This document shows, one piece after another, positions 3,166 through 63,330 of a stretch of DNA of 64,000 bases; position 1 is the first letter of the stretch, and every line of letters starts with the position of its first letter. The translations under genes and the position numbers were made by a program. The notes under the pieces are model-generated. The model worked only from the letters and a program-made list of their open reading frames with translations. It was not told the DNA's origin and made no database searches. Origin of the DNA: Eledone cirrhosa (lineage: Eukaryota); assembly GCA_964016885.1 (NCBI GenBank), contig OZ024741.1:216008001-216072000 (forward strand). The letters are read 5' to 3'.

Positions 3166-3659
3166 TATATATATATAAAGTTGTAGTTCCTGTCTGTTTG
3201 TTTGTTTCTTTGTTTTTCACGAACTCCTCCTATGGTTTTCGAGATAGACCTCATAACTATATATATTCTGAAACGACATTGCCCGGGGTACATGGATAAT
3301 TATATTTTATTTTAATCAAAGGGTTCCCCGGCGGCACAAACCCTCGCTGAAAATATTTTGCCTTCGATTTATATGAAATGATAAGATCTGATGCCTATTC
3401 ACAAGTTTTGAATTGATATTTTGAAAAAAATTCTTTACAAGAAACAAAATAAGAATAAGATTTAATAATGTAATTTTGATTTGATATATTACAAAAAATA
3501 ATATTTTCCAATGTTTCATGCATTACATTTTACATTGAGTAATATTGAAATGCAGGGGTTTTCTCCATAAATTATATCACTGATTTAAAATCAATCATCT
3601 TTTTCTTACAAGGCGCCTCTAATTCGGCTAAGTATATATATATATATATATATATATAT

Positions 3660-4475
3660 GTAGGAGGTGAGTTTTATTGTAGTACAATAAAGCAATGCAG
3701 ATATCGGATAAGAAGCACTCTACAGTTTGTGGGACTGGAGTATGCATAATATAAGATCAAAAGATGGTTAAAGGAGTTCAATATATTTAGAAGAAGAGGT
3801 GAAGGACCATCAAAAGGTATCCAATATGAGAGTAAGCGCTCAACCGTTAAGGAGCAAGTAAATGTAGGAGGTGAGTTTTATTGTAGTACAATAAAGCAAT
3901 GCAGATATCGGATAAGAAGCACTCTACAGTTTGTGGGACTGGAGTATGCATAATATAAGATCAAAAGATGGTTAAAGGAGTTCAATATATTTAGAAGAAG
4001 AGGTGAAGGACCATCAAAAGGTATCCAATATGAGAGTAAGCGCTCAACCGTTAAGGAGCAAGTAAATGTAGGAGGTGAGTTTTATTGTAGTACAATAAAG
4101 CAATGCAGATATCGGATAAGAAGCACTCTACAGTTGTACTACAATAAAACTCACCTCCTACATTTACTTGCTCCTTAACGGTTGAGCGCTTACTCTCATA
4201 TTGGATACCTTTTGATGGGCCTTCACCTCTTCTTCTAAATATATTGAACTCCTTTAACCATCTTTTGATCTTATATTATGCATACTCCAGTCCCACAAAC
4301 TGTAGAGTGCTTCTTATCCGATATCTGCATTGCTTTATTGTACTACAATAAAACTCACCTCCTACATTTACTTGCTCCTTAACGGTTGAGCGCTTACTCT
4401 CATATTGGATACCTTTTGATGGTCCTTCACCTCTTCTTCTAAATATATTGAACTCCTTTAACCATCTTTTGATCT

Positions 4476-4483
<8 letters not shown>
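3660..4483. repeat. 204-bp unit: about 2.3 tandem copies followed by about 1.7 inverted copies
   Basis: gtaggaggtgag recurs at 3660, 3864 and 4068. From about 4135 the sequence is the reverse complement of the unit. Both ends abut (TA)n. Confidence 0.95.
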
Positions 4484-4513
<30 letters not shown>

Positions 4514-4551
4514 AGGAGGTTATAGTTCACTTGAAGCATTGTGTAATGAGG

Positions 4552-4984
4552 TATAAACGTTAGAATATGTGTAATAAGGCCAAGACAATGCAGATATGGA
4601 CATAGAAAGAAGAATGCAATAGTGAAAGATATTGATGAGAATTCGTCTTTCACCTTGAATTTATTTAAATGTCCTTAATTTTCGAGATAATATCTCTTCT
4701 TCGGAGGGAAGTAAAAGTCTCAGACCAGCGTCTAAATTTCCAATGAAGCCATGCTTCATTGGAAGCATGGCTTCATTGGAAGCATGGCTTCATTGGAAAT
4801 TTAGACGCTGGTCTGAGACTTTTACTTCCCTCCGAAGAAGAGATATTATCTCGAAAATTAAGGACATTTAAATAAATTCAAGGTGAAAGACGAATTCTCA
4901 TCAATATCTTTCACTATTGCATTCTTCTTTCTATGTCCATATCTGCATTGTCTTGGCCTTATTACACATATTCTAACGTTTATA
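4552..4984. repeat. Fold-back with arms of about 205 bp, derived from a PLE 3' end
   Basis: 4552-4757 is the near-perfect reverse complement of 4779-4984. The apex has a duplicated 17-mer, ggaagcatggcttcatt. The arm is homologous to 47370-47545. Confidence 0.95.
4829..4863 (+). ncRNA. Minimal type-I hammerhead motif, CCGAAGA core (mirror copy 4673-4707 on minus)
   Basis: cct-CCGAAGA-a-gagat/att/atctc-GAAA-attA-agg. Stem I is cct/agg, stem III is the palindrome AAUU, and the cleavage triplet is UUA. Confidence 0.7.
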
Positions 4985-5019
4985 TATATATATATATATA
5001 TACACAATCACACACACCC

Positions 5020-5057: not shown

Positions 5058-8000
5058 TGAATGTCAGAGGCCTGGTGAAACTCAGTAACATGAGTAAAAT
5101 TTCCTACCTGGGAGACTTAGCCATAAGCAATCAAGCATTATGCTTGGCACTAACCGAAACGCACATGACAAGCAATATAGCGGGTGCAGAAATACATATA
5201 AATACATATACCGAAATACACTGTATTTCGTTCGGACAGGAAGGAGAGAACTCATGGTGGGGTTGCTCTGTATATCCGTGAAGATGTCACACCAATTGTA
5301 CTGTTGACACATTCAAACTCAGTCTGTGACACACTGATAGTACATATGAAGCAACTACAGACAGTAATATGTGTCACAGATCGGCCGCCCGATGCCCCCA
5401 GTCATGAGGGTAAATTTGAGGATAGCCTAAGTAGGATAGAAGAGGTCCTTGACAAACTGGACCAGGGTCTCAATATTCTACTGCTGGGAGACTTCAACCT
5501 ACCAAAGGTCAAATGGCCTGAGGGCCACCTCCTCCCTGGAATGACGTCAATAGAACAGAGACAGACGGAATCCCTGCTGGCCCTCACACACAGGCTGTTC
5601 ATGGAGCAAGCAATACTCCTCCCAACAAGAGGCGAAAATGTCCTGGACCTCTGTTTTACAAACAACGAAGTGCTCATCCACAATGTAAAGGTGACACCAA
5701 CAATTATCTCGGATCATAACATAGTAGAGCTAATGATATGTGGTCCAAGAGAACCAACAGAGACAAAACCACCAAGAAGTTCCGGGACGTTATCCAGCCT
5801 TAACTTCTACAAGGCTAACTGGAAAAAGATTAAGAGAGAAATCCGGAAGCAAACATGGAGTGAAAACACAAGACACTAACACACATTTTCAACACTTCAT
5901 GACAACGATACACACTATATGCAAAAGGTTTGTCCCGGAGAAAAAGGCAAACAGACACAAAAATCTTATTCCCAGAGATATGAAAATCCTTATGAGACGT
6001 AGAACCAAATTCTCAAACCAGTTGAATAGTCAACAAAACAAAAACAAGAAGGAATCCTATTTGAAATGTGCATTACTTGGCACCGAGATTGCACTCAAGC
6101 TTTCCCATGAGAATGAGAGGGCAAAGAAAGAGAACAGGGCCATAGAAAACATTAAAAAAAACCTAAGGGCTTCTTTAAATTTGCAAAAGAAACTGCCTCA
6201 GTACACTGCAAGATTGGGCCACTCTTCATTAACCGAAAACCCCCAAGAGATATGTGAAATACTGAACGAACAGTACAAAAGTGTGTTCACATGTCCACTG
6301 AGGCACATGCAAATAACGAAGCCAGAGGAGTTCTTTGATGCCACAACACTACATGAAGAAATGGCAACCATCAACCACATAGACATAACGGAGGAGGATG
6401 TGGTGTACGCCATTGATGAAATTAGAACAGACTCGGCTGCTGGACCTGATGGATTCCCAGCAGTTCTCTTAAAAATATGTAAGCGGGCCTTAGCAACTCC
6501 ACTGAAGATGCTCTTCAGAAGCTCCTTGGCTAGCGGTGTACTACCCAGGGAGCTGAAAGAAGGCACAATATGCCCTATCCATAAAGGAGGTAGCAGAGCG
6601 GAGGCCAAAAACTATAGGCCAGTCTCCCTGACGTCGCATATCAGTAAGGTCATGGAGCGAGTTGTCAGAAAGAAACTGATCACTTTCCTCGAGGAAAATG
6701 ACCGCCTGACTAGCACGCAACATGGCTTCCGCCCAGGAAGAAGCTGCCTTACACAGCTGCTACATCACTACGACTGGGTACTGAAACAACTACTAGACAG
6801 CTCACATGTGGACGTGATATATCTTGACTTTGCGAAGGCCTTTGACAAGGTCGACCACGGAATGATATGTCACAAACTACACGGACTCGGCATAACTGGA
6901 AAAGTAGGTGAGTGGCTGCATGACTTCCTAAGGGACAGAAGCCAGGCAGTCGCAGCAAATGGGGGCCTCTCAAAGGAAACACCAATAACAAGTGGGGTGC
7001 CCCAGGGGACAGTCCTGGGACCACTACTGTTTTTGGTGGCTCTCTCAGACATGCCCTCTGTAGTACATACAACAACATCCCTCACTAGCTATGCTGATGA
7101 CACTAAGGTAGCACAGGCAATCAAAAACCCGGCTGACGCTGCCCTTTTACAGTAGGATCTGGATGCCATATACAAATGGGCGGAAGTAAACAACATGCAG
7201 TTTAATGCTGGCAAATTCCAAGCCCTACAATACAAACCTCCAAACAAACCTGCAAACACAAATATAGTAGAACACAACTACACAGGACCAGGAGGGACCG
7301 ATATCCCCGTGTCAAAATCGATACGAGACCTGGGCATAGACATGAGCGATGATGCATCTTTTTCTTCACACATCATGAAAGTGGCGACAATGTACAGACG
7401 ACTAGCTGGCTGGATCTTGAGGACTTTCCGGACAAGAGATCGAGACACCATGTTGCCACTATGGAGGACATTTGTCCTAAGCTGCCTGGACTACTGCTCC
7501 CAGTTGTGGTCATCCCATAGTGTCAAACTAACCACGGAGCTTGAGGCAATCCAGCGAAGCTACACCAAGAGGATTGCCAAGATGAGGGAGACAAGCTACT
7601 GGGAGAGGCTAAAGGAACTGAACCTCTACTCCTTGGAACGAAGACGGGAGAGATACGCAGTGATCTACATGTGGAAAATCCTGGAGGGACTAGCACCAAA
7701 CTTTGGCATTGGGAGCTGGACCAACCGTCGAACAGGACGTCACTGTGTGGTGCCAAAGGTTCCGTCTTCCACATCTAGAATAAGGAGCAGGTATTGCAAT
7801 AGCCTGGGATTCAAGGGCCCTCAACTCTTCAACAAGCTGCCGAGGGATCTGAGAGATTTGCATGACGTGGAGGTGGATGTCTTCAAGAAACATCTCGACA
7901 CCTTGTTATCCAGGATCCCGGATGAGCCCACAGCAAGACACGAGGGAAACCTAAGGGCAGCAGCAACAAACTCCCTCTTACACCAGTGGCCAACCTATAC

Positions 8001-8078
8001 AGGCTGGAGATAAAATGTGTAGCAACAAGGGCGGTGCCCCAGCATGGCCTCAGTCGGATGGCTGAAACAGGTAAAAGA

Positions 8079-8080
<2 letters not shown>
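5055..8080 (+). mobile_element. Decayed CR1/L2-group LINE (APE endonuclease plus RT) inserted in (TA)n
   Basis: APE motifs: LNVRGL, LTETH, GDFNLP, LDLCF, SDHN. RT motifs: YRPVSLTS, QHGFRPGRSC, YLDFAKAFDKV, GVPQGTVLGPLLF, YADDTK. There are frameshifts and a stop at about 7153. Confidence 0.92.
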
Positions 8081-8109
<29 letters not shown>

Positions 8110-8111
<2 letters not shown>

Positions 8112-9590
8112 CAATTTTGTTAACATTATTTTGAAACCACTATGTATTCACATACCCAGTTTCATCCGGCATAATATCGACTTCCTGTCCCATCTTCCCA
8201 AAACCACGGAACTGAATTCACTTCTACTTAGTTTTGATGTGGTAAGCCTTTACACCAACATTACACATGATTTAGCAATAAAGGCGGTTAAATACTGGGT
8301 GGAAAAACATAGAGAAGTGATTCCCACCAGATTCCCAGCGCCATTTATATTATACGCAATCAAATTTATTCTGGAAAACAACGCTTTCTTCTTCGATGGA
8401 GAGAATAACATCTAAATTAGAGGCATAGCGATGGGAACGAAGTTTGCTCCCGTTTACGTGAACTCTGTAATGAGATATTTAGAACAACAAATAGAGGAAA
8501 CATATAGCACTAACTTTAGAAAGTACATTGAAAAGTCTAAGAAGAGATACCTTGACGACTGTTTCATCTTCTGGACAGAATCTCTAGATACTCTGGATGA
8601 GTTCAATATCCTCCTGAATAACCTACACTCATCTGTCCAATTCACAAAAGAGATGAGTAGTACGAAATTACCATTCCTAGATATAATGGTAATCAAAAAC
8701 GACACCACCATTACCACGGATATATATTATAAACACAGACACCCATCAATATCTGAATTTTAAGTCGTGCCATCCACCTCATACAAAATGCAACATCCCA
8801 TACTGCCTAGCCAGAATAATTTGTACCATTGTAGAAGATACGAATACCAGGAACAAATGCCTAACAGAACTGAGAGAATTGTTGCTCAAACAAAAATACC
8901 CATCTCTACTTATATAAAATGGCATACAGCGGGCTATAAAAATACCTATACAACAACTTAGGACAACCCAAGGAAGAAGAAACCAAGAACTGGTCAAACC
9001 ATTTATAATGATACACAACCCATGTCACCAGAATATCTTCAACACTGCCAAAGCAAACCTACCGATCATTGCTCAAAGTAATAAATTAAAAGGTTTAATC
9101 ACAGACCGATCTTTGACCCTTAGTAAAAGAGAGCCGAAAAAGTTGAAGCAATTATTAACAAAGGCAAAGTTTACCCTTAACAACAAAGACCAATCATTCA
9201 CTGTATCTAAATGCAATGATAGTCGATGAGGCACATGTCAATCCATACACACTGGTCAATATATGAACACAAAAACTGGAAAAATATTCCCAAATGCAAA
9301 TATGATCTGCAAAAGCAGAAATATATTTTACTGCATTAAATGCCCGAATTGTGAAAAACTATATGTCGGTCAAACTGGAAATGCACTATCGGAACGTGCA
9401 CTGGTGCACCGACAGCAAATCAGAGACCCAAATGTCCGTCAGATGTCCCTGAGTAACCATCTAGCAACATGTGGTCAGAAAATATTTATAATATTTCCAT
9501 TCTAGAAATTACACAGCACAAGTGAAATCAAGAGAAAAATTAAAGAAAAGAATTTTATTGATAAATTCCAACCCAAGCTAAATGAACAAT
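8110..9590 (+). pseudogene. Penelope-like (Neptune-type) RT plus GIY-YIG, 5'-truncated and disrupted
   Basis: SFDVVSLYTNI, MGTKFAP, RYLDDCF, LPFLD, DIYYK, and NIFYCIKCPNCEKLYVGQTG, spread over several frames. Confidence 0.9.
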
Positions 9591-10120: not shown

Positions 10121-10409
10121 TATAAGGAAAAAAGATGAAATCGAAAATGCAACTGGAGTCTTTTTTTTTAAATATATATTTATTTGGTTCCTTTACCGGT
10201 TTCTCAGTTCTTCTGCTTTTCAAAAGTAGAATTGAGATGGAGGGTCTGTGGTTTTTCTCACAACAGATGTGAGAAAAACCACAAAGCCTCCATCTCAATT
10301 CTACTTTTGAAAAGCAGAAGAACTGAGAAACCGGTAAAGGAACCAAATAAATATATATTTAAAAAAAAAGACTCCAGTTGCATTTTCGATTTCATCTTTT
10401 TTCCTTATA
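10121..10409. repeat. Fold-back with arms of about 140 bp (family shared with 24349-24655)
   Basis: 10121-10262 versus 10269-10409 are reverse complements with a few mismatches. The left arm extends about 60 bp further to a (TA)n tract. Confidence 0.95.
10304..10339 (+). ncRNA. Hammerhead motif with U3-A8 core variant (mirror copy 10191-10226 on minus)
   Basis: ctt-TTGAAAA-gcag/aagaa/ctga-GAAA-ccggtA-aag. Stem III is the palindrome ACCGGU, the site is GUA, and stem I is ctt/aag. The paralogue at 24.4-24.5 kb has a perfect gcag/ctgc stem II. Confidence 0.65.
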
Positions 10410-11595: not shown

Positions 11596-11794
11596 ATTGT
11601 TTCTACTTTTGGCACAAGGCCAGCGATTATCCCAGTACATTACTGGTACTTTATTTTATCGACCCCGTAAGGATGAAAGGCAAAGTTAACCTTGGCGGGA
11701 TTTGAACTCAGAACGTAAAGGGACGTAACTATGCTGTAAAGAACTGATACTACCAATTCACCGCCCGTATAAAAACAACAACAACAACAACAAA

Positions 11795-11863
<69 letters not shown>

Positions 11864-12050
11864 TGTTTCTACTTTAGGCACAAGGCCAGCAATTATCCAG
11901 TGCATTACTGGTACTTTATTTTATCGACCCCGTAAGGATGAAAGGCAAAGTCAACCTCGGCGGGATTTGAACTCAGATCGTAAAGAGACGTAACTATGCT
12001 GGAAAGCATGGCGTCTGACCCTCTACCGATACTGCCAATCCACCGCCCCG
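11596..12050 (-). mobile_element. Two tandem tRNA-derived SINE copies (11596-11767, 11862-12050) separated by (AAT)n
   Basis: Minus strand has an A-box-like tggcagtatcggtag, a B-box gagttcaaatccc, a core gcctttcatccttacggggtcgataaaataaagtacc, and a tail ggccttgtgcc.aaagtagaaac. Confidence 0.85.
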
Positions 12051-12960: not shown

Positions 12961-13489
12961 ATATATATATATTTCTATGTGTGTGTGTGCGTGTGTGAGA
13001 GAGACAGAGAGAGAGAGGGGGAGAGAAAGAGAGAGAGAGATAGAGAGAGAGGGGAGAGAGAGAGAGTCGAAAAGGAAAAGCAGCGTAGGGGAATGATACA
13101 GTACAATGAAGATATATATTAGTTTAACACTTGATATAGTAGGGAAAGAGTCTTTGCGTTTCGGGCGTTAGTCCGTCATGTATATATATATATGTGTATA
13201 AAAGTGTATGTATGTGTGTGTGTGTGTGTTTGTGTGTGCGTGCGTGTGTATGTGTTAGGAAGCTTGTGTGTATTCGTGTTTACGTTTATGTCTGTGCTTA
13301 TTACCCGAGTAAGAAAATATTTACTAAGAATACAATTTCATTGGTGAGAAAATGTTAAAAGACAAACTCAAAAGACATCTAGAAAAACATAGACAACAAC
13401 CCAGAAGAGGAGAATGCGTCCTATTAGTTTATAAACCAAATAGCAAACATACTATGCACACACATACACACACACTCACAGACACACAG

Positions 13490-46703: not shown

Positions 46704-47057
46704 ATATCACAGAAAAAAAGAGAATCAGTGTTGCGACGAATGGAATTTATTGGACATATTACAATCGTTTCTCTGGAGACCAGCGCGAGGCACGATCGAT
46801 GTGATGATCTAACCTGACTCTGAAAATCGCAAGGTTCTCAGATACGTCTTGATTCTACGAAGCAGATTTTTTTATGGAAAATCTGATAGGAAATTCTGCT
46901 TCGTAGAATCAAGACGTATCTAAGACCCTTGCGATTTTCAGAGTCAGGTTCGATCATCACATCGATCGTGCCTCGAGCTGGTCGCCAGAGAAACGATTGT
47001 AATATGTCCTATAAATTCCATTCGTCGCAACACTGATTCTCTTTTTTTCTGTGATAT
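46704..47057. repeat. Fold-back with arms of about 165 bp ending at (TA)n
   Basis: 46704-46869 versus 46891-47057 are reverse complements with scattered mismatches. Confidence 0.95.
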
Positions 47058-47320: not shown

Positions 47321-47369
<49 letters not shown>

Positions 47370-47373
<4 letters not shown>

Positions 47374-48896
47374 GTTTGTATTTGTAAAGCCAAAACAATG
47401 CATGTGTGGATATAGAATATAAATGCAAATGCAAAAGATATTGTTGACAATTAGTCTTTTACCTTAAATTTATTTAAGTATCCTTAATTTTCGAGATAAT
47501 ATCTCTTCTTCGGAGAGAAGTAAAGCTGTAAACCAGCATTCTAAATAGCTTGCAAGTCATGCTGACAGGAAATGGTATAGAGAATCTGTTCTATCTCTAA
47601 TGTCAAAGAGTGAAGGTTAGGTGGATAAAGAGTAGTCTCCCTTTAAAAGGGGTTTTGTACATGTATGTTTAAGTGTGTGGGAGAATACGTGAAGGTGTAA
47701 GTATGTGTGTGTGTGTGTGAGTGTGAGAAGATATGTCTATACGTGAATGTGGGGGATAGATGCTCTATCGCGTTAAAACTGGTCTTTGTGTGTGTATGTG
47801 TGTGAGAGAGAATAAGTGGAGGTGTAAGCGTGTGTGTGTGTGTGTGTGTGTGCGTGTGTGAGTGCGTGTGTGTGTGAGAGGGGGTGTAAGTATGGGGCTA
47901 GGTGCTCTATTAAGTTATAAATTGGGTATTGAGTTCTAGTCTATTATTGATTGGTGGTTGTGTTTTGTCTATAATCAATGCTTCCTTAATTCTAAGATTG
48001 CCGAAGTTTCTTTCCTTAGTTTCTATCCTAGCTGTTCTGTTTTTGTCGGTGTTTTTGCATTTCACTAGGTGTTTCTTAAATGAGGAAGCGTTAGTATTGA
48101 GGTGTTCTTTTATTCTTATGTGAAGTGGTCTGGTGGTGCTACCTACGTAGAAGTTGCTTCATTTGTCGCACTATAATCTGTATACGACGTAAGCCTGGTG
48201 GCATAGGTCTGTCTCGTTGATGGGGCAGTTGGCTAGCCTGCAGCGGCTGTCATGTCTGGTGGAGTGTCTTTTGGTTAGCCGTCCGCGTAGACAAGGTCCT
48301 GAGTTAGCTAGTTGGATATCTATTCCCTCTTGTCTGATGGCTCTGCGGATGGCTGTTGTTGTTTCCTCACTGAAGTGTGGGAGCTTCAGGAAGCAGGTGT
48401 TAGTGCCTTGGGTGTGGTGTCCTCTGTTGTTTCTGGCACGGTTCGTGGTGGACGTCGTGTATTCGTTCAGTTTGAGTACTTCCAGGAAATGTGTGGTGTG
48501 TGTCTCTAGGTCTCTAGCGTCAATGCATTTGTTCCCGATACATGTTAGTTCGTTCCTTATATAGCCGAACTTAGCGCTGGCTGGGAGGGCCGATCTGAAA
48601 TGTACAAACAGGTCCCTGCTGGCGGCTTTTTTATAGAAGCATGTGTGGATGTTGCTTTCCTCTGTTATCCTGAGCTGGAAGTCCAGTAGGGATAAGGATC
48701 CGCGGTCATCGGGGTGTTCCATGCTGAACTTTATACTGGCGTCCATGCTGGAGAATGTCGTGTATATTTTATCCGTTTCCTCACGGGATGATGTAAGGAT
48801 GAGTATGTCATCTACATATCGGGTGAAGAAGGTATGGGAATGGCAGGTGTTGAGGGCTCGGCATTCTAGCTGGTTCATATAGGTGATGGCCAGCAG
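47370..48896 (-). mobile_element. 5'-truncated Penelope-like element (RT, GIY-YIG 47910-48895) with a 3' HHR at 47482-47516
   Basis: RYVDDIL, LSLLDF, YKK, AYVVYRL, FYVGSTTRPLHIRIKEH, EALII. The 3' UTR carries CCGAAGA-a-gagat/att/atctc-GAAA and ends at (TA)n. Confidence 0.9.
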
Positions 48897-48906
48897 GTGA
48901 AAAGAT

Positions 48907-48990
48907 CCTTCTGACGAGAGTTTATCTTTGCAATGGATGCCGTAAGGACTGTCCGTTTATTTTTGAGACTCGAAACCGATTCGGTAAAGG
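48907..48990 (+). ncRNA. Canonical-core type-I hammerhead ribozyme with a long stem II
   Basis: cctt-CTGACGA-gagttt...agactc-GAAAccg/att/cggtA-aagg. Confidence 0.88.
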
Positions 48991-49390
48991 TAACCATGGT
49001 GAGTAAAGTTAATTTTTTTTAATTTATTTTGAAACTTTTTCTTATTGCTAAACCTGATTATATATGATCTGGCTCGTTAATTTATTAACCTGCCATTGAA
49101 CCACATTGGCATATGGTTGGACAATACATGTGTCCCTAAGCGCCTTGTGCGTGTAGGGATATATACTTTATTATTATTATTCTCCTCTTGGTCGAGAAAC
49201 AAATTTGGTCGCTGTGATTGCTGCTAGTTATAGCGAGGTAAGACTGATCTCCCTGCCTTTGCTTCTATCTTTACACACGGCACTTGAAGGAATTGCTTCC
49301 ACTTCATTTATTCTCATCTCGGGAACAATTTTGAATAGCGCCAGTTCGTAATTTGAACTCGGGAATTTTATATTCTCCGAGTGAAAAGAT

Positions 49391-49474
49391 CCTTCTGACG
49401 AGAGTTTACCTTTGCAATGGATGCCGTAAGGACTGTCCGTTTATTTTTGAGACTCGAAACCGATTCGGTAAAGG
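49391..49474 (+). ncRNA. Second copy of the hammerhead ribozyme
   Basis: Same motif 484 nt downstream. Confidence 0.88.
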
Positions 49475-50246
49475 TAACCATAGTGAGTAAAGTTAATTTT
49501 TTAAAATTTATTTTGAAACTTTTTCTTATTTGCTAAACCTGATTATATATGTTCTGGCTCGTTAATTTATTAACCTGCCATTGAACCACATTGGCATATG
49601 GTTGGACAATACATGTGTCCCTAAGCGCCTTGTGCGTGTAGGGATATATACTTTATTATATATATATATATATATATATATATTGAATTCGTTTCCTCAT
49701 AATTAGGGTTTCACTGCGATATTCTTCGATTATTGGGGGGGCGGGGGTAATGTTCCCCGTAATCTAGTATTTAAAACGGGCTTCTCCTTCTGTCGTTTTC
49801 ATTAGTCGGTTTCTAGGTATTAAAAAGAAACTTTGTTAACAAGTTTTTGATTAAAGTTGTCTCCCTTTAACTTTCCAAATCGTTGGCTCTGACATTTTTC
49901 ATTTGTAGACTTCATTATTATATACATATTAGTTGGGATTGGTTCTTCTAGAAATCTCAATTCATTCTTTTGTGTTGTTTTTGGAACGCAGCAACATATC
50001 AACATCTTCCAAGCAACTTTACCTATTTGCTTCAAAGCAAAAGCTTGCATTCAATTAAAGATATATTTTAGAATAATAAAGCATTGGGTGCAATAATATT
50101 CCGTCAGTTCACTGAGTAAAATACTTAATAGGTTCGTGTTCACTCAATAAGTAACAGATTAAAGAAAACGATAGAAACTTCGCCATATTGTTCTCTCGCC
50201 AGACATAGAGACAAGCATTTCCCCAGACATAAATACATAAGGATGA

Positions 50247-50303
<57 letters not shown>

Positions 50304-51389
50304 AAACGAGCCACATGTACATATATACAAAAAGGAAGATCGACAGACATACGTTCATATAATATAGCGGGCAGACTTATATAAATAAATAAATACATAC
50401 GTATCTACATGCACTCATACATATATATATATACATACATGCATAGTACATGCATGCATACATATATGCTTACATACAAACATACATACATACATAGATA
50501 CACATATACATGCACATATATACATACATACGTACATATACACATACATACATATATACAAACATACATACAAACACACATACAAACATAAAGAGATACA
50601 GGCACAAAGCTAGCGAGACATTCAAACATACGGAGATACAGACACAATCTAGCGAGACATACAGACATACACACAATAATTCTACCAGACATACAGACCA
50701 ACAAAGAGATCGCCAGAGGTAACCGTAGTAATATACAAGTAATTCTCCAGACACAAGAATATATACTAACATACACGCAAGTTCAAGCTGATCGGAGGTT
50801 GGTATAAGCCATGGTTGGTAGGCTGATTCTAGTAAGTGTAAAACGGTATCGAATATTGCATTTGCACTCAATCACATGCGTCAAAGGATATATAGGTCTT
50901 TGATGTAGGAAACGGTAGTAAATTACATTTTCTCACCAGAACAAGAAATAAGTAAACACGTTGGCTACTAAACGAATCAAAGAAACAATTGCTCGCAGAA
51001 ATATGCTACAAGATTAGACAAATCTTTCAAAAAAAATTCCTCTTTTTCTTTTAATGTCTACGAATATTGTTATTGTTTTATGTTCGTTCTTGATTATCTT
51101 CTTCTTCTTCTTCTTCTTCTTCTTCTTTTTCTTCTTCTTCTTCTTCTTCTTCTTCTTCTTCTTCTTCTTCTTCTTCTTCTTCTTCTTCTTCTTCTTCTTC
51201 TTCCTCCTCCTCCTCATCCTCCTTCTCCTCCTCCTCCTCCTTCTTCTTCTTCTTCTTCTTCTTCTTCTTCTTCTTCTTCTTCTTCTTCTCATTAGTATCA
51301 TTTGTCTTATATAATTACCTATAGGCATTGCATTACTGAGGATTCATGCCACCCTCTAGGACTCATGCCACACTCCCACTGTTTTTAGA

Positions 51390-52594
<1,205 letters not shown>

Positions 52595-52989: not shown

Positions 52990-53164
52990 CATGCTACCTC
53001 AGGTTTCAAAGACTACTCTAACATAGGTCTTAGAGACCGTATATCTTCTTGTGTTGCTTATCTTACAGCTAATACCAGAAAATGCCTATAAGATAAGCAA
53101 CACGAGCAGATATATGGTCTCTAAGACCTATGTTAGAGTAGTCTTTGAAACATGAGGTAGCATG
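52990..53164. repeat. Fold-back with arms of about 76 bp
   Basis: catgctacctca...ttgcttatctta / taagataagcaa...tgaggtagcatg. Confidence 0.9.
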
Positions 53165-53414
53165 CAGATATGTTGAAAATGTATTCATAATAATAATTGT
53201 TTCTACGTTTAGCACAAGGCCAGCAATTAATCAGTACATTACTGGTACTTTATTTTATCGACCCCGTAAGAATGAAAGGCAAAGTTAACCTCGGCTGAAA
53301 TTTCAACTCAGATCATAAAGGGACTTAACTCTATGCTTCAAAGCATGGTGTCCGACTCTCTACCGATACTGCCAATCCACCGCCCTTTTCATAATAATAA
53401 TAATAATAATAATA

Positions 53415-53687: not shown

Positions 53688-55688
53688 TCCGGCTCCTCGA
53701 TTATTGGATATATTACGTGTTAACAGTAAGTGTTTGTCTGTATTCTTGTGTTATTGTGTTAATTAACCCCCTTGCCTGGGTCTTCGGACATTAGGGTTAA
53801 TTTATTTCACCCCTTTTGGGGTGAAATTTTTCATCCTAAAAATCTTGTGATTGTCTCTACGCTAGTGGTAATGGAAGCCATTACCACAGGTAACGATGAC
53901 ACGCCCACTAAACAAACTGAAGGAGAGCGGGTAGCGGAAGCAACAAGCCTCCGCACTGAAAGAATAATGATTATTAGAAACATTGAAAAAATGGAGCCTA
54001 ACCCTAGTGAAAAAAATGTAAAAAAAATTGACTCGGAGTAATTGCCAACATTAATGGATGCCGTTTCGATTTTTCACGGTGCCACGCCCACCAGCAAAGG
54101 TGAAAGAGAAGTAGTAGCTGTGACTACAAGTCTCTTGGATACTGAAAATATAAGTGAACATTTTCAAAAAATGGAGTCTAACCCCAACGGGGAAAAAAAT
54201 GTGAACGCATACACCAACATAAATAACACAGACACAACAAAAAATGAAAATTGTAACAACAAAAAACAAGAAAACCACATTTCGACAAATGTAAACAGAG
54301 AGGGGTCGAACAAAATGACGTTCGCACAAACCATAAAAAAACTACTGTGTATGAACCTATTGAGATTTCGAACATGGCCCAGCAAATGGAAAATGCACGG
54401 AAGTATATAACTTTGGAGGAGAATGGTCTATTTTCTTTAAATTCTCCCCAGAGCTAAAAACAATTATTTATAGGACAATATCAAACAAAACCCGTAAGCC
54501 AGTACAACTCTCACAAACAGAGATTGAACTGGCTTTAAAAGATCATCTGAAAAACATTGTATTCATTCGGAAGGATAGGCTCTACAGTAGTCTATCCATC
54601 CGAATGAAAGATAAATTGACGGCCGAAAAACATTCCCTGGCCCCAATTGTGTCCCCCTTATTTACCTTCTTCCCCACTTATTTGGGAAGAAAAACACAAA
54701 GATTGACCATACACAGTATCGATCCAGATATTGATTTCTGGGCGGTACTGTGTGGCCTCCTCGACTTGAAAGTGGATGCAATAATTTCGGTAGGTAAGTC
54801 TTCCAGCAACGTGTTCGGTGGAACTAGCCTGCAAGTTCTGGTGCAAATGCAGCCAGAACGAATTGCTAGGATCCCCGACCGCATATTGCTGGATAGGCTT
54901 GCCTACTTACACATCACAGTGGAGGGTAGACGACTCACTTGTTACCTCTGTGGTGGCTACCGAGGGGCGCTGCCCGTTCGAGAAAAGCTCTACAGACACG
55001 GGCACCCGGGTAGGGACCCCTCAAAAAATATCTGTCCCAGATGCGTGCGCGACGAGGAAACCGTTGCGCACGCATAGCTACACTGCTCGGGCGTTGCCGA
55101 TCTGTGAGGCTATGTCGAAACGACTACTGTCACGGGTGGGACCAATCCGGTTGACCGCTGAGTCCATTGTAACGATCAAGCCGCCTCTCCCTTCAAAAAT
55201 GAAGGAGAGGCGGTCTTCCTCTGTGTAATAGCCATGGTGAAAGAGGTGGTATGGTACACACGTTTGAAAGGGCTGAGGTCGGACACCTTTCTCTCCGGCC
55301 AACATCTGGTCCTTTTCTTTAAATACCATTTTAAGAGAAGGATCAGAATGGAGAGAGAGGTGCTCTACCCCACCAAGTTTTATGAAAGGTGGGTGAAAGT
55401 AGCGACAATGGCCCGTGTGAATGGGCCTTCTCTCTTTATCAGCCTGTAGGTGGAAAGGTGGAAGTGCAAAGGAGCACCCCCTCTCTGTGCTCCTGGGGAA
55501 AAGGGTTACACACTTTTTCGGGGGGCGGGGGGTTGTAACCCCCAAAATGCCTCCTCCCTGTTGAGGACTGTATTGTTAATTTTTTTATATTTGTTATTTG
55601 TTTTTTTTTTACTCGTTCCTTTATGTAAATTCCCCCCTTGTATTTGTCCCCTTCTTTTGTGCCCTCGTGGCAAATAAATAGAAACTGA
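53688..55688 (+). mobile_element. Internally deleted Tx1-like LINE flanked by (ATCT)n
   Basis: ORF1 (FTFFPTY...VEGRRLTCYLCG) is fused directly to the ORF2 tail (YRGALPVREK...CPRC). atctatct tracts lie at about 53670 and 55689. Confidence 0.88.
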
Positions 55689-55705
55689 TCTATCTATCTA
55701 TCTAT

Positions 55706-57870
55706 CACCCCGTCTAGTGCATTTGGCAGCAGAACGGGAGAATTCCCAGTTCTACAGGCAAGGGCGTAGTAACGCTGATCAGGAAAGACGAGAACATGGG
55801 GACGAAATTAACAACTTCAGGCCCATAACTCTGCTCAACACAGAGTTAAAGATTTTGGCCCAGGTGCTAGCGACGAGGTTGGCGCTTGTTGTCGAGAACC
55901 TGGTTGGGAAAGCGCAAACGTGTGCAATCTCGACCAGGTCCATACACGACAACCTCCACCTCATTCGATACATCATAGAGAGGGTGGGTAGTAAACCCGG
56001 CTTCGGTGGGGCTCTGATCAATTTGGATCAGTCTAAGGCATTCGATAGGGTCGACCATCGATACTTGGAAGCGGTTCTCAAGGCGGCCGGTTTCGGTCCC
56101 GTTTTCAGAGGCTGGATCGAGGCGATGCACACCAGCATCTGCTCGAGGGTCAAGGTGAACGGCTACCTATCAGAGTCGTTCGCAATCACGCGTTCCATTC
56201 GACAGAGGTGCCCTCTCTCTTCCATTCTGTATGTATTGACTCTAGAGCCACTACTGCGGAAATTGGAGCTGTTGCAGGGCATCCCTCTAGAACCAGGTCT
56301 GCGCAAAGCGGGGTCGGATTATGCCGACGACGTGGCACAATGGTGTCGAGCATCTCGGAAATCGGGGTGATCGGCAACTTATTGAAAGAATCCGAAACAC
56401 TGACGGGAGCAAAACTAAACCCAGACAAGTGTGTCGGATTGCAACTCCGTACGTGGAGTGGTAAACTGATGACGTCCGACAGCGTCGTTGGACGCTGGAC
56501 GGACGGACCGGGGAAATTGCCCGGGTTCTGGTTCGGTCCAGACCTCCAGGTGGATAAAAACTGGAACGAGGTCACGGCCAACGTGTTTGCGCTCACCCAG
56601 AAGTAGGCAGAGTGTAAACTGTCCTTGAAAGGTGAAGAGGAGGTGGCGAACACATTCATCGCGTCCGTCATTTACTACCGCTTGACCGTCGTGCCTTGTC
56701 CCTGTGAATACTTCACCAAGATAGAAGCATGCTCTTCCAGTTCCTTTGGAAGAAGCAGGTTCCACTGGTGAGGAGATCCCTCTGCTGTCAGCACCCTTCC
56801 AACGGAGGGCTGGGATGGCGTTGCTGATGATGCGCAAAAATGCGCTGAGGCTACGGCATCTCCTGGTATTCCTCACCGACCCCCAACCGGTGTTGGCACC
56901 GTTTGTGAGACAGGCTTTCCCACAGCTCGTCTCGCTAACGGAGCTGCAGTCCTGGGTCAAGGAAAGACCGAAAATGATGGGCGCCTGGCACATTGAATGC
57001 GCTCAGGCGCTCACAGTCCTCTGGCAAGCGGGCGCAGCAATCAGTGGAGACTACTTCGATATTCTATAGACGGCGACGACGTGCTTGGAGAGACTCTGGG
57101 CGTCGAAGACGATGAGCTCAACAGTCTGTTTGGTAGGACTTTCCGCCCGGGACCTATGGACAACTTCCAGAGGTCCCTGGCCTGGCAGTGCTACCGAGGA
57201 GCTCTACCGGTTCGTGACATGAGCTACAAGCACGGATGTGTCCAAGATGCGCGCAGGACATTGAAACAGTCCTACACGCAATTGTACACTGCCCGGGCGT
57301 AACCGACCTATGGAACTATGCAGAACAACTGCTGCCGCGTATGGGACAAATCCAGTTGACTGCCGAGTCCATAGTAAGGATCAAACCGCCAGCCTCTTTC
57401 AAAAACGAAAGTACAGTGGCTATGGTGAAAGAAGTTATATGGTGGACAAGATTGAGAGGACTGAGGACAGATGCCTTTCTCTCCGGACAACAATTGATTC
57501 CCTTCTTTAAGTATCACTTTAGAAGGAGAATCAGAGTGGAGAGAGAGGCACTGAACCCCGGTAAATTTACCGAAAGGTGGGTGAATGAAGCGAAAATGGC
57601 CCGAGTGATTGGGCCTTCTCTGTTTATAAGCCTGTAGGTTAAAGAAGAGAGCAAAAGGAAGAAAGGAGCACTTGCACAACACGCTCCTGGAGTTGAGGGT
57701 TGTTCTATCGACGGTGTATTAAACAACCCATTTGTGGAGCCTCCCCCCTATTGGGGATTTCGATTGTTGTAATTGTTTGTTTCTATATTTTTTACACAAC
57801 TGTATGTAAAATCCCCGGAATGTCTTTGTATTGTCCCCTTTTCTTGTGCGCCCTTGTGTCAAATAAAGAA
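55706..57870 (+). mobile_element. 5'-truncated Tx1-like LINE, close relative of 24655-26800
   Basis: NFRPITLLNT, LDQSKAFDRV, CPLS..LY, YADDV. The 3' UTR is nearly colinear with the reverse complement of 24655-24860. Confidence 0.92.
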
Positions 57871-58590: not shown

Positions 58591-60071
58591 TAAATGATAT
58601 GGTAACGAAAGGGTTAAGTATAAATAAGGGTTTCTTGTATAGGCACAAGGCCAGCAATTTTGGGGGAGGGGAAAATCGATTAGATCGACCCCAATGCGTG
58701 ACTGGTACTTTATTTTATCGACCCTGTAAGGATAAAAGGCAAAGTTAACCTCGGCAGGATTTGAACTCAAATCATAAAGGGCCGAAACTCTATGCTGCAA
58801 AGCATGACGTCCGACCCCCTACCGATACTGCCAATCCACATAATCCATATTATTCTGTATTTTATACAGACCTCGGTGGACGCAACACAAAAAAATGTTT
58901 AAGAAATTCGTTTTGTAATGATTTGTTCCCGGTTGAATCCCACCACGAGTCATCTTGTTCAAATGAATCTCCTCGTGAATTACGTTAAAGATACACGTGT
59001 CTGTGGAATATTCAGTCATACGTTTATAGTAAAAGAACTGTTCCAGTAATTCAAAGAACCAGTCAAATCACACACCATGTCACGGTGAATCTCCCTGAGA
59101 ATTACATTAAATATAGACATGTCCGTGGAATTTTCAGCTACATACAAGCAGGCTGTTTGCGTTGATCGAATAACTAACTAAAACACTCGTCGTCAAAACC
59201 GACGCAAGCCCATTCCATTCTAATTCCCTCCATTCGGTACATACCTCAGATTGTTATTAAGCAGTTAATTTAACATACAACGTGTCTTTCCAACACGTTC
59301 ATTTGCTTGTAATATAAATATGATATTAGTGTAATAATATACAGTAATGTATGTTCTATAGTCTTCATTAACATTCAGTTACTAATTTCAGAAAACTATA
59401 TATCTTATTTCACAATGATTTACTAATAATTCTGCTGCTTAATTAGTCAACAAAATCCAATCAAATGGAGCTTGAAATAGCACCTATAATTTAATATATT
59501 GGGAAATCAATCTTACTTTGTTGTAAACAATTGACGATGGGGAAACAAGTCTTCGCTTATTGAACATGAAATATGTTTGCCTTCCAGCGACTTGCAAATA
59601 GAGAAAGATAAAATGGTGGCCAGACGAAATCTAAATAGATATTGTATTTACAATATGATTCAAATTTACACAACAAACGTCTGCAACGTAAGCCTATATA
59701 GATTACTTATCGGAACTAAAATTATGAGGAAACGCACAAGATTTATAATGTGTTTGGTGATATCTTAACATGTGACAATAGTGTGAAAGAGGGAGCGAGT
59801 GGGTGTGGGTGTGTGCTTTTGTATGTGTGTGTTTGTGTGGGTGTGGGTGTGTCCGTGTGGAGATAAGAGAGTCAAAGAAAGAGAATGATAAAGTATGACA
59901 GATAGAGGATGGCGTAGAGACTGAGACACAGAGAGGGAGAGAGAGCGAGAGAGAGAGTGAGAGAGAGAGAGAGAGATAGAGAGTGCGAAAGAGAGAGTGA
60001 GAGAGAATGATAAAGTGAGTGTGTGTGTGAGATAGAGGATGGCGTAGAGAGAGAGAGAGAGAATGTGTGTG

Positions 60072-61064: not shown

Positions 61065-61096
61065 AAAGAATAGAGGTGTAACACACAAGTTATTAA

Positions 61097-61478
61097 TATA
61101 TTGGTAAATGGAATAGAAAATGCTGACAAATTGTTCACAGTGAAAAATAGTTTAATTAGGAATAAATGAGAATTAGTAATTGTATTGGTTAGTATTCAGT
61201 TTTGGTTTTAAGTATTACGGGTTGCGCATTTCTAATGCTTTTCAAAAATAATTTTGAGATAGAGCGTCCGTTATGTTTGCTCTGATCTGAGCAAACAACA
61301 GAGCAAACATAACGGACGCTCTATCTCAATATTATTTTTGAAAAGCATTAGAAATGCGCAACCCGTAAAACTTAAAACCAAAACTGAATACTAACCAATA
61401 CAATTACTAATTCTCATTTATTCCTAATTAAACTATTTTTCACTGTGAACAATTTGTCAGCATTTTCTATTCCGTTTA

Positions 61479-61486
<8 letters not shown>
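61097..61486. repeat. Fold-back with arms of about 188 bp, carrying an atypical HHR-like motif at 61335-61370
   Basis: 61097-61284 versus 61299-61486. Motif: ttt-TTGAAAA-gcatt/aga/aatgc-GCAA-cccgtA-aaa. Confidence 0.93.
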
Positions 61487-61573
<87 letters not shown>

Positions 61574-62477: not shown

Positions 62478-63330
62478 ATATTTATTAAAATAACAGATTA
62501 AAGTTTAAGCAAAGAATCGCTGCTTTCACCCTTAACGGGATCTTCTGAAACTAACAAAGTCAATCTGTAAACGCAGAACTGGATATTTCAAAAAACGTTG
62601 CAACCGGAGGAAGACAGGAAGACGATACTTTGGTTCGTGGTAACGTTCGCTGGCAAAGAACGGGAAAAAACGAATAATACGTCATTAATAGGAGCGGTGA
62701 AAAACAATTACGCGCAAAGACAGAACCACCATTATGGTATAAAAGAGGTCGTAGACTAATGTTCTCTTAGGTGGTGCATAGAGACGTTCTCTGGCAATGA
62801 ACGAAAAAACGAAGATAATAAGTGATATGTGGAGCGTGGAGAACAATAGCAAGCAAAGACAAAACCAGGTAAATGGTATAGCAGAAGTCGTAGACTAAAA
62901 TTCTAACTAGGAGACCAAATGAATCTCCGCTACAGAGTGAAAGCAACGATTCTTTGCTTAAACTTTAATCTGTTATTTTAATAAATATAGTATGTTGAGA
63001 GAGATATAGTGTGCCATCAATAAAACAAGGAAAACCACCAGTGTATGGAATCTATAACCTATGGAAGGCTGGGTAGACACAAAATAATTAAAGATATAAA
63101 TTAAAATGCATATACACACCTCTATAACTATAATATAGGCTATTCTATTTCAGTCAACAACTTCCAGGCGAAACAGATCTCTTTGGATTTGAACGCGTGT
63201 GTTATATATTTATAGAGGTGCATTTTAATTTATATCTTTAATTATTGTGTGTCTACCCAGCCTTCCATAGGTTAGAGTTTCCATGCACTGGTGGTTTTCC
63301 CTGTTTTATTGATGGCACACTATCTCTCTC
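62478..63330. repeat. Two adjacent inverted-repeat structures (62478-62530 / 62937-62989 and 62997-63127 / 63211-63330)
   Basis: Reverse-complement arm pairs are visible. An HHR-like remnant, CAGAAGA-t-ccc/gttaa/ggg-t-GAAA, lies on minus at about 62520-62550. Confidence 0.85.

Follow-up and report, generated by a model that had tools for sequence, protein, structure and literature searches.

The segment 4512–4984 of the window (the whole stretch of 64,000 nucleotides of Eledone cirrhosa DNA that was analysed) was a hairpin of about 470 bases, and these positions were the true bounds of the insertion. The hairpin is best read as a single insertion without an ORF, made by an endonuclease-bearing PLE and composed of two head-to-head pseudo-LTR copies. 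Its origin from a PLE was close to certain, and a route in which the two arms were primed separately was mildly favoured, with a probability of roughly 0.55. Judged from the sequence, the best evidence for the PLE origin was a one-sided tail holding the inferred start of the PLE ORF.

Structure of the insertion and its tail

The inverted repeat was returned as 4552–4766/4770–4984 by the repeat search of the window, and the comparison of arm with arm gave 100% identity over 203 nt (4552–4754 versus 4782–4984). The first-pass annotation had placed the element at 4552–4984, which omitted the 40-nt tail. The features are given in Table 1. Head-to-head pseudo-LTRs with outward 3' ends and a palindromic junction were present, and no ORF lay between the inverted repeats; of the PLE ORF, the first 9 codons alone were found. 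Arm and PLE had both been described as ending in AACGTTT followed by (TA)n. This held for the right arm and for the PLE, but not for the left arm, in which AACGTT-TATA was followed by 40 non-repetitive bases and then by (TA)n. The junction with TA had also been called precise; it was not precise to the base, as 4 nt (TATA) at the short end were common to element and target. Any target-site duplication would be masked by the (TA)n target. Elsewhere in the 64-kb window, no additional copies of the arm or the tail were found except the PLE remnant at 47366–47566 (−), which was 78% identical to the arm. The neighbouring fold-back 3655–4488 had a 204-nt tandem unit and an 86-nt one-sided tail, and it shared a (TA)n tract with the insertion; no hammerhead was found in it.

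Table 1. Positions of the hairpin insertion, the PLE remnant and their adjoining features in the window
Feature	Position	Strand
(TA)n tract, long (tail) end; also the end of fold-back 3655–4488	4481–4511	.
One-sided tail, 40 nt; ATG at 4539 starts MLQVNYNLL, inferred ORF start of the parent PLE	4512–4551	−
Left arm, pseudo-LTR (3' UTR end) copy with outward-pointing 3' end	4552–4757	−
Hammerhead-like motif, minimal type I, U4C core, left copy	4673–4707	−
Apex: 5-bp mini-hairpin at 4745–4757, then 34 extra nt as two 17-nt units at 4758–4791	4745–4798	+
Right arm, pseudo-LTR copy, finishing at the short end (internal TATA)	4782–4984	+
Hammerhead-like motif, minimal type I, U4C core, right copy; cut predicted after 4860	4829–4863	+
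(TA)n tract, short end; first 4 nt common with the element	4981–5002	.
(TA)n tract bordering the PLE remnant on its 3' side	47327–47370	.
Arm homologue (78%) within the PLE 3' UTR, with the same short end	47371–47566	−
Same U4C hammerhead-like motif, 400 nt past the ORF end	47482–47516	−
PLE ORF, 5'-truncated: RT end, Cys linker, GIY-YIG; two in-frame stops, no frameshift	47913–48890	−
Partial tandem, 484-nt unit, unrelated to the PLE; canonical-core hammerheads at 48911 and 49395; head-to-head with the remnant; ends in (TA)n	48897–49643	+

The tail (4551 to 4512) consisted of 40 unique bases between the left arm and (TA)n and directly followed the arm end AACGTTTATA. Among 28 full-length relatives of the RT found in the window (740–960 aa), the N-terminus was alignable in 14 and had the form MLLxxN[YF]x[IL]L. 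Against a profile of those N-termini, MLQVNYNLL ranked third of the 86,481 six-frame 9-mers in the window and first of the 1,577 that start with M, and its score was attained by 10 of 20,000 random 44-nt windows; these ranks refer to a peptide of only 9 residues and to profile columns picked after the tail peptide had been seen. The N-terminal search with one relative returned just one more protein. We infer that the ORFs of the parent PLE group begin with MLQVNYNLL as a conserved start, and the 40-nt extension reads as a PLE tail. Such tails are 30–40 bp long and often occur at a single end (PMC8557442), extend into the ORF start (PMC3846280) and sit between two RT start sites (PMC11167929). 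An inverted 55-nt pair at 62478–62532 and 62934–62988 encoded ILCLNFNLL, the two top matches of the profile, with no preceding ATG. They may be ORF starts that have decayed in a related PLE, or else false positives of the profile.

At the apex, the left arm ended in the mini-hairpin GAAGC-CAT-GCTTC, which lay at the turn of the fold-back and was followed by the two 17-nt units. An exact 29-nt direct repeat, as present here, occurred in 1 of 1000 random windows. Two other fold-backs had weaker apex duplications, of 9 nt at 61091 (null 4%) and of 10 nt with one mismatch at 46708. Slippage following snap-back, repeated copying at the 5' boundary of the template, a donor tandem or host repair could each have produced the 17-nt units.

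The PLE remnant and the hammerhead-like motif

The arm had been reported as colinear with the 3' UTR of the RT/GIY-YIG element as far as 47545. This was borne out, and the match continued about 20 nt beyond, covering 47366–47566 (−) with 165 of 211 columns identical (78%) and a local score of 190, where 1000 shuffles gave no more than 32. The homologous stretch was the 3' UTR of the ORF remnant 48890–47913 (−). A C-terminal GIY-YIG domain was detected in the remnant (Pfam PF01541, 24.9 bits; cut-off 22.6), together with the partial end of an RT (RVT_1, 19.9 bits, under its cut-off); both domains were carried by its full-length relatives. A total of 1198 proteins matched the remnant at E up to 0.001, and the best homologue among 6 matches was an Octopus bimaculoides protein with 57% identity. 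The Cys linker, CX4CX7C, resembled by eye the Nematis/PNL2_SM rows in fig. S2 of PMC8557442 and departed from an exact CX2-5CxxC. On this by-eye reading of the linker, the endonuclease-bearing parent PLE was probably a member of the Nematis group.

The 1.5-kb remnant terminated at the same short end as the hairpin and had no partner arm within the window. Because the identity was only 78%, the arms would derive from a sister subfamily and not from this copy. The proposal that the hairpin was the 3' end of a PLE present in the window therefore stood as regards the PLE-derived 3' UTR and failed as regards that copy, which was 22% different. Most of this divergence probably arose between active subfamilies, because 2 stops in 326 codons point to a decay of only 5–9%, albeit with a wide 95% interval reaching 20–31%. 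Decay after insertion as its sole source was disfavoured, as 22% decay would give 5–8 stops.

The remnant was joined by its 5' side, at 48896/48897, to the partial tandem, whose hammerheads at 48911 and 49395 were of type I with a canonical core, a long loop II and a full helix III. The composite 47371–49643 had (TA)n at both outer ends. The tandem was retrozyme-like and fitted the definition of a retrozyme better than 4512–4984 did. A head-to-head joint of two unrelated RNAs, as at this position, was not found in the searchable literature.

On the PLE sense strand, the hammerhead-like motif comprised the core CCGAAGA, one A left unpaired, a helix II of 5 bp beginning with G-C, GAA, the palindromic AAUU, A and a 3-bp helix I. 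The traits of the minimal type I were present, namely GAAA...UH, an unpaired base after A9, G10.1-C11.1 and a palindromic helix III (hammerhead numbering). The expected core is CUGAnGA, whereas CCGAAGA (U4C) was found in all 3 copies; helix I, expected to have 4–5 bp, had 3 bp beside the core and a possible 7-bp outer stem. A descriptor that tolerated a single deviation in the core, and had been relaxed with prior knowledge of the U4C motif, matched 6 sites in the window (3 of this motif and 3 with a canonical core); 30 of 30 dinucleotide shuffles gave no match. No hammerhead match was obtained from Rfam on the window (150 matches listed of 206), on the arm or on a control with a canonical core; because the control was missed too, this result was uninformative. 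A covariance model built from 4 canonical-core motifs of the window recovered all 4 and a fifth, decayed copy. With the same model, the arm motif scored 10 bits (E 2.5), and the copy at 47.5 kb was absent from its list.

Better conservation of the motif than of its flanks had been claimed, and the one pairwise comparison made, arm versus remnant, agreed with it: the motif span was identical at 34 of 35 positions and the flanks at 131 of 176 (Fisher one-sided p = 0.001). A 35-nt identical run at 4830–4864 coincided with the motif at 4829–4863, and the segment quoted in the first-pass annotation was its antisense strand; the permutation probability of an identical run of 35 or more anywhere was 0.0036. 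Among 16 helix pairs compared, 14 were invariant, 2 had one-sided changes that kept the pairing and none had compensatory changes. No excess folding stability of the motif over shuffles was found (z 0.15 and −0.53). Constraint on a coding sequence was rejected as an explanation of the conserved run, since in each copy all three sense frames reach a stop within the motif or shortly past it. The suggestion of selection on the motif thus remained plausible, as the run fitted the motif bounds, the frames were stopped and most of the divergence was probably between active lineages, and was limited by the single comparison and the lack of compensatory changes. Selection would have acted on the motif segment in the parent elements rather than in the hairpin, where the motif would be a passenger, kept since it mattered in autonomous parents. 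It need not have been for catalysis, which is putative.

The U4C change gives a much lower activity in vitro and still allows viroid infectivity (PMC3088659), and U4 was present in every core among the rows seen of the hammerhead table in PMC8557442. A U4C PLE hammerhead kept in two subfamilies was not found in the searchable literature; the variant may be in print. The retention of such a core in two subfamilies is relevant to the question whether cleavage by PLE hammerheads is required at all. The predicted cleavage site lay 137 nt ahead of the AUG. The hairpin RNA folded at −374 kcal/mol. In a read-through RNA, the antisense arm would be made first and the motif would be buried in a duplex of about 200 bp. 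Because of this order and because the motifs lie on opposite strands, neither a ribozyme nor a cis dimer would be expected in that RNA.

Past the hammerhead, in 4862–4984 versus 47371–47483, a hand count found substitutions commoner at the third codon positions of one frame, which was open to the ATG in the arm and had a stop in the PLE copy. Donor-like sites AAG-GT(A/G)A were kept in both, and the region is possibly a 5' UTR intron.

Fold-backs of the window and formation of the hairpin

Ten fold-backs were collected by an inverted-repeat search and self-BLAST with microsatellites masked. One end was at most 2 nt from (TA)n in 8 of them, compared with 2.3% of random positions within 10 nt; the fold-backs at 52990 and 62998 did not adjoin (TA)n. 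Among the 8, TA microhomology of 3–6 nt was present at the short end in 7 (null 5–7% for 3 nt or more), a one-sided extension in 7, and a tail of 35–86 nt followed by (TA)n at the other end in 6. The fold-backs at 10121 and 24352 had a common tail sequence and the same turning point. The architecture of head-to-head arms plus tail recurred in several unrelated families within the 64 kb; PLE homology applies to 4512–4984, and the other families were counted by architecture. By descriptor and covariance model, a credible full hammerhead was found in 4512–4984 only and in none of the other 9 fold-backs; the descriptor match at 24453 had an implausible core, and GAAAC, present in 6 of the 9, may be chance or a half motif. 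The claimed link of fold-backs, hammerheads, PLEs and TA thus applied to the PLE family of the hairpin and was weak for fold-backs generally, as 1 of the 10 carried a credible motif. Many below-threshold Rfam microRNA matches fell on the other fold-backs (among the 150 matches listed of 206). In annotation, such hairpins resemble MITEs or microRNA precursors, yet they are retrotransposon ends. The fold-backs 10121–10409, 24352–24603 and 61091–61492 were related, and the first two carried GAAACCGGTA-AAGG, resembling the 3' halves of both hammerheads of the tandem (48911 and 49395).

In the favoured route, the GIY-YIG domain would nick both strands of a (TA)n tract, and from each 3' OH a cDNA would be started at an internal position of the RNA close to the ORF start. 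Priming at the short end would use an internal UAUA, located 12 nt ahead of the AUG and able to pair with the target, and priming at the long end a site 40 nt further on, giving the tail. Both cDNAs would halt about 50 nt upstream of the hammerhead, one cDNA end would slip back twice by 17 nt, and the cDNA 3' ends would then anneal via the 5-bp complement GAAGC/GCTTC. In PMC11167929, purified PAc protein cleaved and extended both strands and started at two internal sites bracketing the tail, which speaks for two primers; initiation was there seen at RNA non-homologous to the cut DNA, unlike the TATA match proposed here. The alternative, rather unlikely, is a single primer with snap-back, in which the long-end cDNA folds on GAAGC-CAT-GCTTC, slips twice, is extended along itself up to the internal TATA and there pairs with the opposite strand of the target. 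The one-sided tail and the short-end microhomology would be directly explained in this way, the mini-hairpin sits at the turn, and palindromes at inverted junctions were taken as self-priming in PMC3846280. Moreover, one-sided tails in 7 of 8 fold-backs are not predicted by a free choice of start site by two primers and favour snap-back. For a single locus, the sequence is the same under both routes. Two primers nevertheless fitted better because the remnant had the short end without a tail-bearing partner arm, and because its head-to-head partner was a different element, the unrelated tandem. In snap-back, the short end is the end of the second strand, a mere copy of the tail-bearing first strand. 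The joint could also have formed when a deletion later brought two insertions together.

Microhomology-mediated repair, which can add templated insertions, typically leaves short repeated insertions and microhomology. A single 5'-truncated PLE end with its tail could accordingly have been inserted and later duplicated in inverse orientation by such repair at (TA)n, with the apex repeats as templated insertions. The 100% identity of the arms and the short repeated insertions with microhomology agree with this course. It was judged improbable, as the same architecture occurred in several unrelated families in 64 kb, the short end was common with a copy that was not folded, and inverted pseudo-LTRs are a regular PLE product. 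The lack of any difference between the arms would also suit a fold-back artefact of the library or assembly, which was held very improbable because apex and tail were asymmetric, the arms of the other fold-backs in the window had diverged (80–98%) and two separate loci had a common tail. A MITE of a TA-targeting DNA transposon, with its arm captured in the PLE 3' UTR, was scarcely credible. It would account for the near-perfect inverted repeat and for TA at both arm ends, but the one-sided tail encodes the inferred PLE ORF start, the hammerhead motif of the arm is of the PLE type, the arm itself forms the extreme end of the PLE, and the ends are asymmetric, symmetric terminal inverted repeats bounding the whole element being absent.

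Strong-stop DNA is a known product of reverse transcription, telomerase realigns at the template boundary, and the PLE RT is a sister enzyme of telomerase. In a more doubtful reading of this kind, the RT would start near the ORF start and run about 200 nt to a fixed RNA 5' end, from which it would normally jump to the downstream pseudo-LTR; failed cDNAs from opposite nicks would be joined, and the 17-nt units would be telomerase-like repeat additions, with the nascent TTC realigning on GAA 17 nt back. The window lends this run-off thin support through the common turn of 10121 and 24352, the weak duplications at 61091 and 46708 and the one mixed head-to-head joint. If it is true, octopus fold-backs would form a vast natural archive of PLE intermediates and a main source of the perfect dsRNA heavily edited by octopus.

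Comparison with known systems and other elements of the window

Head-to-head pseudo-LTRs, junction palindromes, one-sided tails, pseudo-LTR hammerheads and (TA)n targeting are already published PLE traits. Endonuclease-bearing PLEs (PMC8557442, fig. 2 legend; PMC3846280, Pen2a_Av) have the head-to-head inverted pseudo-LTR, the junction palindrome, the 30–40 bp tail at one end overlapping the ORF start and (TA)n targets in common with 4512–4984. The hairpin differs from them in having no ORF between the repeats, the AUG in the tail and not in the pseudo-LTR, and two extra 17-nt apex units. In PMC8557442, (TA)n targets are reported for Naiad, Hydra and Neptune, and Octopus families of Naiad and Hydra with a (TA)n preference are listed. 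The minimal hammerheads of metazoan PLEs (PMC4209133) are likewise of type I, with an unpaired base between 9 and 10.1, G10.1-C11.1, a palindromic helix III (AAUU) and a place on the sense strand of the pseudo-LTR. The present motif departs from those families in its U4C core, its helix I of 3 bp by the core (4–5 bp there) and its helix II of 5 bp. Opposite-strand hammerhead pairs about 100–700 bp apart are known in Schistosoma (PMC4209133).

PAc, the Poseidon element of Anolis carolinensis (PMC11167929), shares with the hairpin two RT starts near the ORF start that bracket the tail, an AT-rich target and a hammerhead about 100–150 nt upstream. It differs in that its hammerhead overlaps the start codon and initiation occurs at RNA non-homologous to the target, whereas here the cut is predicted well before the AUG and TATA is common with the target. 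PAc ribozyme mutants still inserted in vitro (PMC11167929). Non-LTR retrozymes (bioRxiv 10.64898/2026.07.22.740005) are also non-coding, hammerhead-bearing PLE derivatives, but they are direct tandems with same-strand ribozymes, whereas 4512–4984 is an inverted pair with motifs on opposite strands.

Among titles and abstract openings, a scope outside which most subscription papers and Repbase lay, no account was found of such octopus fold-backs, of two extra 17-nt apex units or of apex reiteration. The origin of tandem and inverted PLE ends and the choice of microsatellites are named as an open question in PMC8557442, and the later steps of the PLE cycle lie beyond the assays of PMC11167929. 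With about 10 fold-backs in 64 kb, the genome allows two primers and snap-back to be separated by junction counts. Octopus has unusually many near-perfect duplex loci and hyper-editing, with repeats unannotated (PMC5625713), and PLE fold-backs may be candidates for those loci.

Several other elements were seen in the window. At 21849–24032 (−), an uninterrupted ORF of 727 codons was RT/GIY-YIG-like and carried DKT and a CxCX5C linker, which are marks of the Hydra PLE clade; Pfam gave no match on this ORF. Further PLE endonuclease remnants were recognized by eye from linker or core at 51360–52213 (+), about 850–1368 (−) and 9293–9589 (+), of which one was Hydra-like and two were Neptune- or Naiad-like. 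Minimal hammerheads with a canonical core, two of them decayed, were dispersed in short microsatellite-ending elements at 38096 (+), 62233 (+), 10654 (−), 30897 (−), 13145–13190 (−) and 19440 (−). The stretches 5202–8763 (+), 25134–28178 (−), 54956–57845 and 31938–34031 (+) held endonuclease/RT ORFs of LINE-like type, one of which recurred as an 86% copy in inverse orientation, and an LTR remnant with an integrase. An abundant interspersed repeat of 150–200 nt, SINE-like in size and 81–94% identical between copies, occurred at 11598–12048, 42523–42838, 44380–44520, 45159–45742, 53182–53387 and 58622–58844.
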